Shown here: in pieces, positions 35,054 through 40,360 of the stretch
Numbering within the stretch: position 1 is the first letter of the stretch
How the letters are laid out: the number at the start of each line of letters is the position of its first letter
Origin: Escherichia coli
Lineage (GTDB): Bacteria > Pseudomonadota > Gammaproteobacteria > Enterobacterales > Enterobacteriaceae
Direction: 5' to 3' (one strand)
Assembly (NCBI RefSeq): GCF_003334335.1
Contig: NZ_QOWQ01000017.1
Length of the DNA: 64,000 nt
Notes under the pieces: generated by a model
Told to the model about the DNA's origin: nothing
Seen by the model: only the letters and a program-made list of their open reading frames with translations
The model's database searches: none
Made by a program: the position numbers and the translations under genes

Positions 35054-36007
35054 GTGGATAGTAATAATCAAATTGAACCCTGTTTAAGCAGAAAGTCGTC
35101 AGAAGGTAAACCACAAATATTTACAACCTTACGAAATATTGATCTTAACCTTCTGACTATTTTTGAAGCTGTATATGTACATAAAGGGATCGTTAATGCA
35201 GCGAAAGTGCTTAATCTGCCCCCCTCGGCAATCAGTCAGTCTATTCAGAAACTGCGCGTTATATTCCCTGACCCATTGTTTATTCGCAAAGGCCAGGGTG
35301 TCACTCCTACCGCATTTGCGATGCATCTACATGAGTATATCAGTCAGGGCCTTGAGTCCATTCTTGGCGCGCTGGATATCGAAGGAAGCTATGATAAGCA
35401 ACGAACGATAACTATTGCGACCACTCCCTCGGTCGGAGCACTGGTCCTTCCTGTCATCTATCGGGCGATTAAAACTCACTATCCGCAGCTTTTACTGCGC
35501 AACCCGCCCATCAGCGACGCGGAAAACCAACTCAGTCAGTTTCAAACCGATCTCATCATCGATAACATGTTTTGCACCAATCGTACGGTGCAACATCATG
35601 TTCTGTTCACCGACAATATGGTGTTAATTTGCCGCGAGGGAAATCCACTACTCTCTTTAGAAGATGACAGAGAGACTATCGACAACGCTGCGCATGTACT
35701 TCTGTTACCGGAAGAGCAAAATTTCAGCGGTCTGCGGCAGAGAGTTCAAGAAATGTTTCCGGACCGGCAAATCAATTTCACCAGCTACAACATTTTGACA
35801 ATCGCTGCACTGGTTGCCAACAGTGACATGTTAGCGATTATTCCCAGCCGTTTTTATAACCTGTTTAGCCGCTGCTGGCCGCTGGAAAAACTGCCTTTTC
35901 CGTCCTTAAATGAGGAGCAAATAGATTTCTCTATCCACTACAACAAATTCAGCCTGCGTGATCCCATCCTGCACGGAGTAATAGATGTTATCCGTAATGC
36001 ATTTTGA
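35054..36007 (+). CDS. ybeF: LysR-family transcriptional regulator
   Basis: 317 aa; N-terminal HTH (LNLLTIFEAVY...SQSIQKLR) LysR signature; GTG start uncertain; AT-rich. Confidence 0.8.
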   Translation: MDSNNQIEPCLSRKSSEGKPQIFTTLRNIDLNLLTIFEAVYVHKGIVNAAKVLNLPPSAISQSIQKLRVIFPDPLFIRKGQGVTPTAFAMHLHEYISQGLESILGALDIEGSYDKQRTITIATTPSVGALVLPVIYRAIKTHYPQLLLRNPPISDAENQLSQFQTDLIIDNMFCTNRTVQHHVLFTDNMVLICREGNPLLSLEDDRETIDNAAHVLLLPEEQNFSGLRQRVQEMFPDRQINFTSYNILTIAALVANSDMLAIIPSRFYNLFSRCWPLEKLPFPSLNEEQIDFSIHYNKFSLRDPILHGVIDVIRNAF

Positions 36008-36215
36008 AAAAGTATTGTTACAGCCAGATCACAGCGCAGAACGATAAAATGGCACAATCCAACAACAATTTTACATTTTCGCGACCGCTTTGGCTGCTTT
36101 CAGGTCCGTTTCAATGATATACTGCCAGTCGTTAATTCAAAAATAGTTGATAATTACAACAATCTATTGAATTGAAACGCTTTCCTTCGTAATTCGCAAC
36201 TGGAACACGCACGCT

Positions 36216-37181
36216 ATGAGTAAACCCATTGTGATGGAACGCGGTGTTAAATACCGCGATGCCGATAAGATGGCCCTTATCCCGGTTAAAAACGTGGCAA
36301 CAGAGCGCGAAGCCCTGCTGCGCAAGCCGGAATGGATGAAAATCAAGCTTCCAGCGGACTCTACACGTATCCAGGGCATCAAAGCCGCAATGCGCAAAAA
36401 TGGCCTGCATTCTGTCTGCGAGGAAGCCTCCTGCCCTAACCTGGCGGAATGCTTCAACCACGGCACAGCAACGTTTATGATCCTCGGCGCTATTTGTACC
36501 CGCCGTTGTCCGTTCTGTGATGTTGCCCACGGTCGCCCGGTAGCTCCTGATGCCAATGAACCAGTGAAACTGGCTCAGACCATTGCCGATATGGCGCTGC
36601 GTTATGTGGTTATCACCTCCGTTGACCGTGATGACCTGCGCGATGGCGGTGCCCAGCACTTTGCGGATTGCATTACTGCCATTCGGGAAAAAAGCCCGCA
36701 AATCAAAATTGAAACTCTGGTGCCGGATTTCCGCGGTCGTATGGATCGTGCTCTGGATATTCTGACTGCAACGCCACCAGATGTGTTCAACCATAACCTG
36801 GAAAACGTACCGCGTATTTACCGTCAGGTACGGCCTGGTGCAGATTACAACTGGTCGCTGAAGCTGCTGGAACGCTTTAAAGAAGCGCATCCGGAAATCC
36901 CGACCAAGTCTGGTCTGATGGTGGGACTGGGTGAAACCAATGAAGAAATTATTGAGGTAATGCGCGACCTGCGCCGTCATGGTGTGACGATGTTAACGCT
37001 GGGGCAATATTTGCAGCCAAGCCGCCATCACCTGCCGGTTCAACGTTACGTTAGCCCGGATGAGTTCGACGAAATGAAAGCCGAAGCGCTGGCGATGGGC
37101 TTTACCCATGCTGCATGCGGTCCGTTTGTCCGCTCTTCTTACCACGCCGATTTGCAGGCGAAAGGGATGGAAGTTAAGTAA
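36216..37181 (+). CDS. lipA: lipoyl synthase (radical SAM)
   Basis: 321 aa with both cluster motifs ([12 protein letters not shown] and CTRRCPFC). Confidence 0.95.
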
Positions 37182-37211
37182 TCCTGTAATAATTACTTAC
37201 ATCTGTCTGAT

Positions 37212-37241
37212 AAAAAACCCGCTTTTTGAAGCGGGTTTTTT
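37212..37241. terminator. bidirectional rho-independent terminator between lipA and tatE
   Basis: aaaaaacccgc-tttttgaa-gcgggtttttt: stem flanked by A-run and T-run. Confidence 0.8.
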
Positions 37242-37281
37242 GTATCGAACAAGATATTGAGGGAGCGTCCTGCTCGCCACG

Positions 37282-37485
37282 TCACTCTTTATGAGAGAGC
37301 TTTTCAGCCTGAAGATCAACGTCTGCGCCTTTTTTCGCCGCAGCATCGTCATCATTCATCGCCTTCTTGAACCCTTTAATGGCCGCTCCAAGGTCTCCGC
37401 CCAGCGTACGTAACTTCTTAGTCCCAAACAGCAGAACGACCAGCGCCGCAACTACCAGCAGTTTGGTAATACTAATCTCACCCAT
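37282..37485 (-). CDS. tatE: Tat translocase subunit TatE
   Basis: 67 aa, TatA/E family N-terminal TM helix followed by amphipathic helix. Confidence 0.92.
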
Positions 37486-37613
37486 AGATACCTTCTTGAC
37501 ATATAACCGGCAACAGAACGCGCCTTAAAAACCAGAGAATATTAACGGTCATTCGACGCGCGCACACAATAGCAATCTGTAACAAGGTGAATCAAGCGCC
37601 GAGTAAAAAAACA

Positions 37614-38407
37614 TCATAATAATTGCGGCGGCGCAAAGCGACGGTTGTTTAAGACGGGCAGTTGCGCGCGCACCTGACGCACACGTTCGGGCGTCACTTC
37701 CGCCATAATGAGTGCAGGCATTTCTGACGCTGCCGCAATGGTGACGCCAAAGGGATCTATAATCCGGCTTTGACCGATATTTTTGTTCCCGCACTCCCCC
37801 GCCGCCACCATATAACAGGTGGTATCCAGCGCACGAGCGGCAAGCAACGTTGACCAGTGATGCTCTTTGAGCGGCCCGCGAACCCAGGCGGCAGGAAGTA
37901 CCAGGATTTCAGCTCCCTGTAATGCCTGTGCCAGCGCCAGCTCTGGAAAGCGTAAGTCATAACAGGTCATCAGCCCGACCTTCATCCCTTCCACCTCCAG
38001 TAACGGAGCGATTTCATTACCAGCATCAACACGGCGTGATTCCTGAATGGCAAATGCATCATAGAGATGCAGTTTGGCATAACGGGCGACGATGTTTCCT
38101 GCCTGAAGTGCCACCAGCATATTCCATGCGCGCCCCGGCGTTGAAGGAACATGAATCGTCAGAATTGTCGTCATCATGTTACGTTTACTTTCTCGCCGTA
38201 AAGTCCGAGGAATTCGCCTTCCAGCAGCTGTGCTGATTTAACCGATAGATCTGCATCATGATCATCGCGCGCCAGCAATGCTTCCGGCAGGACAAACAGC
38301 GATACGTCGTTTTCCGCCGCCTGCGCCATCAACGAGGCACAAATCTCAGCGTTCTTTTCCCACACAGATGTAACAGCAAACTGTCCTGCGGCAACCAGCA
38401 TTGCCAC
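37614..38407 (-). pseudogene. ybeM: C-N hydrolase (nitrilase-superfamily) gene disrupted by frameshift
   Basis: Two adjacent minus-strand ORFs (38174-38407 and 37614-38177) read as N- and C-terminal parts of one C-N hydrolase; frames differ by one nt at about 38175-38180. Confidence 0.75.
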
Positions 38408-38493
38408 CTCCTGTCAGAGTCGTAAAATTCGCCAACGACGATTATTCGGCGTTACACTTATCACTCATACAAATCAAATAGCAGGATTTTGCA

Positions 38494-38877
38494 GTGTTAC
38501 AACTTCTTTTAGCAGTTTTTATTGGCGGTGGTACGGGAAGCGTGGCGAGATGGCTGTTAAGTATGCGATTTAACCCACTGCATCAGGCGATTCCGTTGGG
38601 GACGCTGACAGCAAACCTGATTGGGGCATTCATCATAGGAATAGGATTCGCATGGTTCAGCAGGATGACGAACATTGATCCAGTGTGGAAAGTATTAATC
38701 ACCACCGGATTTTGTGGCGGTCTAACAACCTTCTCAACATTTTCGGCAGAAGTGGTGTTTTTGTTACAAGAGGGCCGCTTTGGCTGGGCATTACTGAACG
38801 TTTTCGTCAACCTTCTGGGGTCTTTTGCCATGACCGCACTGGCATTCTGGCTGTTTTCGGCCTCAACCGCACACTAA
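38494..38877 (+). CDS. crcB: fluoride ion channel CrcB/Fluc
   Basis: 127 aa, four TM segments, recognised CrcB. Confidence 0.92.
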
Positions 38878-38882
38878 AGACC

Positions 38883-38911
38883 AAAAAAAACCCGCTGATT
38901 AAGCGGGTTTT
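38883..38911. terminator. bidirectional rho-independent terminator between crcB and cspE
   Basis: aaaaaaaacccgc-tgattaa-gcgggtttt. Confidence 0.75.
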
Positions 38912-38930
38912 GAATTCTTGCTGACGTATC

Positions 38931-39140
38931 TTACAGAGCGATTACGTTTGCAGCAGAAGGGCCTTTGGCACCGTTAGTGATTTCGAACTCTACGCGCTGA
39001 CCTTCAGCAAGAGTTTTAAAACCATTAGTCTGGATTGCAGAGAAGTGTACGAACACGTCTTTGCTGCCGTCTTCCGGAGTAATGAAACCGAATCCTTTGG
39101 ACTCATTAAACCACTTAACGTTACCTTTAATCTTAGACAT
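38931..39140 (-). CDS. cspE: cold-shock-domain protein CspE
   Basis: 69 aa from internal ATG ([12 protein letters not shown]...); RNP1 motif KGFGFI. Confidence 0.93.
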
Positions 39141-39314
39141 CAAAATTACCTTTACATGAAAAATAGACACAAATGCTGTGTCGGTTACCAGTACACCAAT
39201 TGTGGTACGCTTTGTCCAGTGTAACTTTACTAAAAAGTGATAAAAGTCGCGTTATTTTTGATGTTACTTATTTTAGCTATTGATTTTAAAGAAGTTACTA
39301 AAACTTCATTTGTC

Positions 39315-39875
39315 TCAAAACTGAAAGCGCATCCAGGCAAAGTACACATTGCCATTGTTGTAGGTACCCGGAATGTAGGTCATCTGAAAAGTCACTGGGC
39401 CATAACCCACGGAGGCCAATGGCAGTAGAACCGGGAGAGGGATGTAATTCCAGTTATCGCGTGCCGTTACGCCAGCGGTGAATCCCAGACCTAAATGAAA
39501 ATTTTCATCCGCCAGCGGTCGCCAGGTACTTTCCCATCCGTATCCGGCAATCGGTTCCCATTTGTTCCACGAGTCCTTAAATGCCATGGCATACAGGCCA
39601 TGCCAGTTTCCTTTTTCATCCCAACGCGACAGGCCAAAACCGCCACCCCACGGTCGCTCGTTATAGCGATCGGTTTTTTCTTTGTCGTAAGCGAAACGTG
39701 CATGCCAGGTGATGGCAGGAATATATAAATCATAATGTTCAGGCTGTTGCCAGGTTTGTGCAATATTTTCTCTAAACGTTGTCATCCACTCATCTGCGTT
39801 AGCAAAAACTTTACCAACGCTGATTAACTGAATAAAAACAAAGGAAAAGATAGCGACATATTTACTCACGTTCAT
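39315..39875 (-). CDS. pagP: lipid A palmitoyltransferase PagP (outer membrane)
   Basis: 186 aa from MNVSKY start with signal peptide; recognised. Confidence 0.92.
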
Positions 39876-40360
39876 TTGTGACCATAAAACATTTATCAAA
39901 AATCTACTACTAGCATAGCAAAGCTACAATTAACATAACCTTAATAGACCCAACATAAAGAATAATCTGAATAGCTGCTCTATTTATTTCCGCTTGTTCA
40001 AGTTAAATATTTCCGCGCATCGATTAAAGATGATGCGTCGTTTTCTGCGATGGGAATAGTCAAAAAAGAAAAACCAAGTCTTTTTTGATGACAAAATGCA
40101 ATCAAGGAAAAATTATTTTATTTTTTAACGAGATACAACAATCATCTTAACGAAGTATATAATATATATCGTCAACCTATGCTCATATTAGATTATTTTT
40201 TGAGCGCACAGCCGCAGCTAACACCATTGCAATTAACAAATTTGCATCAATCCACCATCAATTTGCACACATTATTATGTGATAATTGCCAACCGCTAAA
40301 TATGCGTTTTGTTATCTATGTATAAAAACAGCAACTTCAATGTCTTAATGGCAGTTTTTA

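Follow-up and report, generated by a model that had tools for sequence, protein, structure and literature searches.

The split ybeM gene found in the window (a stretch of 64,000 nucleotides of Escherichia coli DNA) is a known, already catalogued and inherited pseudogene allele. We consider it highly probable that this allele, c.200delG, is the product of a single recent event, has been vertically inherited and is non-functional. The initial annotation reported two open reading frames on the minus strand of the window, and both are present as described: one at 38174..38407 (77 codons, beginning with GTG) and the other at 37614..38177 (187 codons, beginning with ATG). Their frames are offset by one nucleotide, and they overlap at gtaaacgtaacaTGAtgacg, which is found at 38188..38169 in the minus-strand sense. 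The neighbours of these reading frames, lipA (+), tatE (-), crcB (+), cspE (-) and pagP (-), are those of the E. coli ybeM locus. The claim that a single-nucleotide frameshift splits the gene is confirmed by alignment with intact alleles, which yields a one-base gap, and by length as well, since ybeM spans 788 nt in the window versus 789 nt in the intact gene. Measured from the ATG at 38401 to the stop at 37614, these 788 nt leave a remainder of 2 on division by 3, and therefore exactly one base is missing. The features of the locus are as follows.

38402..38412, minus strand: Shine-Dalgarno region cAGGAGGtggca for ATG 38401, duplex -11.6 kcal/mol

37614..38401, minus strand: ybeM pseudogene (nitrilase superfamily; deaminated glutathione amidase), 788 nt, native ATG through native TGA

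38177..38401, minus strand: N-terminal fragment of 75 codons, with residues 1-66 native and residues 67-75 out of frame (LYGEKVNVT), followed by TGA 38176-38174

between 38203 (C) and 38202 (T), minus strand: the lesion, one deleted G (c.200delG), placed by alignment with intact alleles

38174..38177, minus strand: ATGA overlap of the premature stop TGA (38176-38174) with the native Met76 ATG (38177-38175)

37614..38177, minus strand: C-terminal fragment ORF of 187 codons, native residues 76-262, starting Met76-Met77

The lesion was placed in an alignment of five alleles: that of the window, the frameshifted ones of strain 300709 and a K-12 derivative, and the intact ones of YPE10 and ECA64. 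A single gap is the only length difference among the five; at this point, CTCGGACGTTTACGG in the intact alleles corresponds to CTCGGAC-TTTACGG in the window. The deleted G is the middle base of codon 67 (CGT, Arg67) and lies in the context GGAC[G]TTTAC, which contains no homopolymer. The exact indel, which the initial annotation had left to orthologue comparison, thus turns out to lie 26 nt upstream of the premature TGA in the quoted overlap, and the overlap of the two reading frames is consequently a result of the lesion and not its site.

For the assignment of family and fold, we used the repaired (ancestral) sequence, in which the missing G is put back. Its product had been expected to comprise roughly 262 residues with a nitrilase fold, and it is indeed a protein of 262 aa, which scores 452 bits on the NCBIfam model NF033621 (de_GSH_amidase; curated cut-off, 355 bits). 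The fragments as encoded score 85.3 bits (N) and 344.6 bits (C), both below that cut-off, and they cover consecutive profile positions (2-65 and 76-260, respectively). Pfam CN_hydrolase (PF00795) matches residues 3-245 of the repaired protein along model positions 2-255/256 (E=9.4e-41). Modelled with AlphaFold2 from 18 orthologues (pLDDT 82.3, pTM 0.86), the repaired protein has the alpha-beta-beta-alpha sandwich fold. A Foldseek comparison of this model with the PDB returned yeast Nit2, K. lactis Nit2, mouse Nit2 and NitFhit, with probability 1.00 for yeast Nit2, mouse Nit2 and NitFhit and TM scores of 0.82-0.85, the best matches being the yeast and K. lactis Nit2 proteins; by sequence, the nearest solved structures are NitFhit (1ems) and yeast Nit2 (4h5u). 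Based upon these matches, intact ybeM is predicted to encode a 262-aa deaminated glutathione (dGSH) amidase, a metabolite-repair enzyme of the Nit1 type within the nitrilase superfamily. Deaminated glutathione amidase (EC 3.5.1.128) converts dGSH to 2-oxoglutarate and Cys-Gly, and an active E. coli homologue is reportedly among the enzymes of this kind. The dGSH amidase role was assigned to Nit1-type enzymes by Peracchi et al. (2017 PNAS 114:E3233). The eukaryotic members, namely mammalian Nit1 and yeast Nit2 (4h5u, 7elf and, for NitFhit, 1ems), share the fold, the catalytic triad and the family function of deaminated glutathione amidase with YbeM at TM 0.82-0.85. However, they are distant homologues of about 28-30% identity, and they are intact and longer than YbeM owing to insertions and, in worms and flies, a fusion to Fhit. 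It was also conceivable that the two reading frames correspond to separate genes. This is contradicted by 14 orthologues from at least 8 genera (E. fergusonii, Citrobacter, Salmonella, Leclercia, Kosakonia, Enterobacter and others), each of which is a single 262-aa protein that aligns without a gap across the junction.

The lesion also divides the catalytic residues, which had been raised as a point to check. Residues E40, K110 and C147 of YbeM align with E54, K127 and C169 of NitFhit, which we take to be the catalytic triad of that protein, and all three are invariant in an alignment of 18 orthologues. In the window allele, the 75-aa fragment carries E40, and the 187-aa ORF carries K110 and C147. 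According to the model of the repaired protein, the native part of the N fragment consists of strand 1 (2-7), helix 1 (14-30), strand 2 (35-37), the catalytic Glu40 in an LPE motif and the first half of the helix at 63-72. The lesion falls within that last helix, and the C fragment opens at the strand at 78-86 and holds Lys110, Cys147 and the Glu154 of an RFPE motif. Native residues 67-75 (RLRRESKRN) are encoded in neither fragment. As judged from the model, both the active site and the sheet would be incomplete in either fragment. The intact E. coli protein (WP_000959109.1, strain YPE10; NF033621) carries the Glu-Lys-Cys triad on one 262-aa chain, which the window allele cannot do, even though the two coding sequences are the same except for the deleted G and one synonymous SNP.

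Several steps would follow from this arrangement. Translation from ATG 38401 should shift frame past Gly66, add nine wrong residues and end at TGA 38176-38174, presumably yielding a 75-aa product that keeps Glu40 and is missing Lys110 and Cys147. The downstream ORF, if translated at all, would keep the Lys and the Cys and would be without Glu40 and without the opening strand-helix-strand unit of the alpha-beta-beta-alpha sandwich. Since Glu40 is separated from Lys110 and Cys147 and the fold is incomplete, no active enzyme is expected from the window allele.

The same allele is present in E. coli K-12. In the MG1655 reference (NC_000913.3), ybeM (b4581) is annotated as a 788-nt pseudogene at 658031-658818 between crcB (b0624) and tatE (b0627). 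It shares with the window the locus order (crcB, ybeM, tatE, lipA), the 788-nt span and, as both the alignment and the table of differences reveal, the identical c.200delG. The statement in the initial annotation that ybeM is likewise a pseudogene in K-12, and its suggestion that the lesion is probably inherited, are both supported by this shared deletion. In RefSeq, strain 300709, K-12 and five further carriers all have the 788-nt span recorded as frameshifted or as a pseudogene, and PGAP applies its "frameshifted" flag to ybeM in seven carriers. Among complete genomes, an exact 58-mer across the deletion occurs in at least 860 of the 5,424 matching E. coli genomes (about one in six), and the exact intact 59-mer occurs in 3,626. 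The remaining 938 or so match the intact query with one difference fewer than the deleted query, and are thus intact at the lesion site with 1-2 SNPs. K-12 differs from the window in two additional changes located 12 nt apart, 98T>C (V33A) and 110T>C (V37A), both of which the window lacks. A 67-mer search for this K-12 haplotype gave 367 records and identified 365 genomes; it was used solely to count genomes of the K-12 type, to which it is limited as the two SNPs deprive other strains of a 28-nt seed. Nearly all of the 40 such genomes listed bear K-12 or laboratory-strain names, and the 365 look like laboratory derivatives. Setting these aside, some 495 of the other genomes (about 5,060), or roughly 10%, are natural carriers, a figure that presupposes the deletion in all 365 K-12-haplotype genomes; the deletion was verified in two of these. 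In E. coli B derivatives, ybeM is intact (922-nt matches).

Strain 300709 and five sampled carriers (from chicken, human blood, human urine and bovine mastitis, plus ML35) are identical throughout the gene to the intact allele of YPE10, save for c.200delG, which suggests that the lesion is recent and that its intact parental haplotype is extant. The deletion would accordingly have arisen once on a haplotype that still circulates in intact form, and it would then have passed down vertically in a lineage holding K-12 and roughly a tenth of the non-laboratory complete genomes. The shared position, the non-repetitive context and the common haplotype in this small sample all point to a single origin. 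V37 is invariant in the 18 orthologues and is situated three residues from Glu40, and its replacement by alanine in K-12 fits relaxed constraint. One independent lesion was encountered in E. coli O166:H15 JNE21-003 (locus L006, 3073-5990), where the IS21-like element ISEc62 (istA/istB) lies near the 3' end of ybeM and leaves a 726-nt CDS and a 99-nt remnant. In a single genome out of 5,426, the ybeM locus was without any match.

The window itself comes from a non-K-12 carrier, because neither V33A nor V37A is present and a synonymous SNP private to it, c.429T>G (Gly143, GGT>GGG), is found at position 37974 (a G on the minus strand). Against 5,425 complete RefSeq E. coli genomes, the best match of a 921-nt ybeM query from the window was 99.9%, and there was none at 100%. 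In its 23-kb surroundings the window is nearly identical to BR1220, A14, MB10, NCTC9041, NCTC9100 and others, with which it ties at a score that fits about 2 mismatches.

Given that single-base indels are the commonest type of assembly error, one might propose that the gene is really intact, with a true sequence of GGACGTTTAC, and that the deletion was introduced during sequencing or assembly. Error-prone assemblies, with pagP and lipA split too, are indeed the source of some truncated YbeM entries in the protein database. In the window, however, lipA, tatE, crcB, cspE and pagP are all intact, the deletion is located outside any homopolymer, and the identical allele recurs in the 860 complete genomes mentioned above, one of them the K-12 MG1655 reference with its curated pseudogene. 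We therefore regard such an error as extremely improbable. The large protein-database clusters of truncated YbeM, P0040, P0049, P0057 and P0070 (loci L007-L010), were not counted as independent alleles; the contigs carrying P0040 and P0049 also have pagP and lipA split, and the clusters probably reflect error-prone assemblies rather than real alleles. Among the truncated forms, one of 215 aa starts with MMQILSVK, implying a +1 insertion near codon 52, and another of 214 aa has a frameshift in an AAAAA run at codons 206-208.

A further question is whether any function could persist at the translational level. The native start, ATG 38401, has an AGGAGG 5 nt upstream with a Shine-Dalgarno/anti-Shine-Dalgarno duplex of -11.6 kcal/mol, and it is the RefSeq start of ybeM in all genomes inspected. 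The GTG at 38407, with which the mechanical ORF call had opened the first reading frame, sits inside this Shine-Dalgarno element and is not the real start. The proposal that the downstream ATG-ATG might give a truncated product is unsupported: no Shine-Dalgarno sequence precedes Met76 or Met77, where the best duplex is -3.6 kcal/mol at 13-16 nt spacing. The C fragment is therefore unlikely to be initiated independently, and this possibility was rejected. Such a product would also lack the catalytic Glu. This leaves the ATGA as the sole feature able to allow termination-reinitiation at ybeM. Conceivably, the N fragment could be made from the native Shine-Dalgarno sequence and the C fragment through reinitiation at the ATGA, with the two polypeptides reassembling non-covalently into an active split amidase. 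A stop/start overlap of this form is a classical arrangement for coupling; the break is located at residues 63-77, in a helix and loop lying between blocks of secondary structure, and not within a strand; and the C fragment by itself reaches 344.6 bits on NF033621. Against this, Met76 has no Shine-Dalgarno sequence (the -3.6 kcal/mol duplex being at 13-nt spacing), residues 67-75 are absent from both fragments even though L68, E71, S72 and N75 are invariant in the orthologues, the K-12 branch has gained V37A at an invariant position close to Glu40, and ybeM is routinely disrupted as a neutral site. Reassembly of this kind is thus very unlikely.

Alternatively, full-length YbeM might be restored between codon 67 and the premature stop by programmed -1 frameshifting or by transcriptional slippage. 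The shift that would be needed (-1) is the commonest type of programmed frameshift, but no X XXY YYZ heptamer exists from nt 200 to the stop (nt 226-228), the only two in ybeM being at nt 41 and 648, and the longest homopolymer in this 27-nt interval is AAA, which is too short for transcriptional slippage. Moreover, the intact alleles hold the extra G and the frame of the relatives is uninterrupted, indicating that the frameshifted form is derived and is not a conserved recoding site. With neither a slippery heptamer nor a long homopolymer in the 27-nt interval, recoding was rejected and has practically no likelihood in our estimation. An alternative-frame ORF of 56 codons was also observed on the minus strand at 37982..38152; it shares the frame of the N fragment and begins 7 codons past its TGA.

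There is, lastly, a slim chance that the locus is still alive, with the 187-aa fragment reinitiated at the ATGA either joining the 75-aa N fragment in a low-activity split dGSH amidase or serving in some other role, or that loss of dGSH amidase was selected in a K-12/ST10-like lineage. If true, this would explain how the allele could reach a non-laboratory frequency near 10% without further decay of its reading frames. A non-functional allele of recent and single origin, whose loss of function would be neutral, is by far the preferred reading.

Across the aligned stretch, the ybeM promoter region is the same as that of intact alleles. In strain CFT073, whose ybeM is presumably intact, NO stress down-regulates the gene, at which an NsrR ChIP peak is also located (PMC5320621). 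Since the promoter region is unaltered and ybeM is transcribed in CFT073, the locus is probably still transcribed in carriers of the deletion. Our own scan for promoters and terminators returned matches no more numerous than in shuffled sequence. About 560 nt of ybeM RNA go untranslated after the premature stop, and tatE (37282..37485) is located 128 nt downstream on the same strand, across the intergenic region 37486..37613. Because of this untranslated RNA, Rho-dependent polarity could in principle affect read-through transcription into tatE.

The pseudogene status of ybeM has practical correlates. In MG1655, the gene has been described and used as a pseudogene and neutral insertion site (PMC7242477; PMC6207328), and its inactive state would explain why it is a safe place for neutral integration. 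Judging by their sequences, carriers of the deletion, K-12 and hence most laboratory E. coli among them, are probably devoid of the dGSH metabolite-repair amidase, which most wild E. coli and related Enterobacteriaceae retain. Some caution is consequently advisable where glutathione metabolism or the control of metabolite damage is studied in K-12 as a model. In addition, c.200delG (38203/38202) should be a convenient lineage marker. Beyond annotation hygiene, the significance of the allele is small.

Out-of-frame sub-fragments of UTI89 ybeM cause filamentation when over-expressed, including a 29-bp fragment encoding MFLQRRGAH that was over-expressed from pBAD24, and the authors consider this effect unrelated to the evolved function of the gene (PMC6206680). 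With respect to structured RNAs, an Rfam scan of 36000-40000 (E<=1) gave no match inside ybeM, and there was no fluoride riboswitch before crcB in the 92-nt divergent intergenic region between ybeM and crcB. The only match above its gathering score in this interval was the cspA thermoregulator (RF01766), which covers the cspE gene and its 5' UTR (38883..39325, minus strand) over the full length of the model at 124 bits versus a gathering score of 78.
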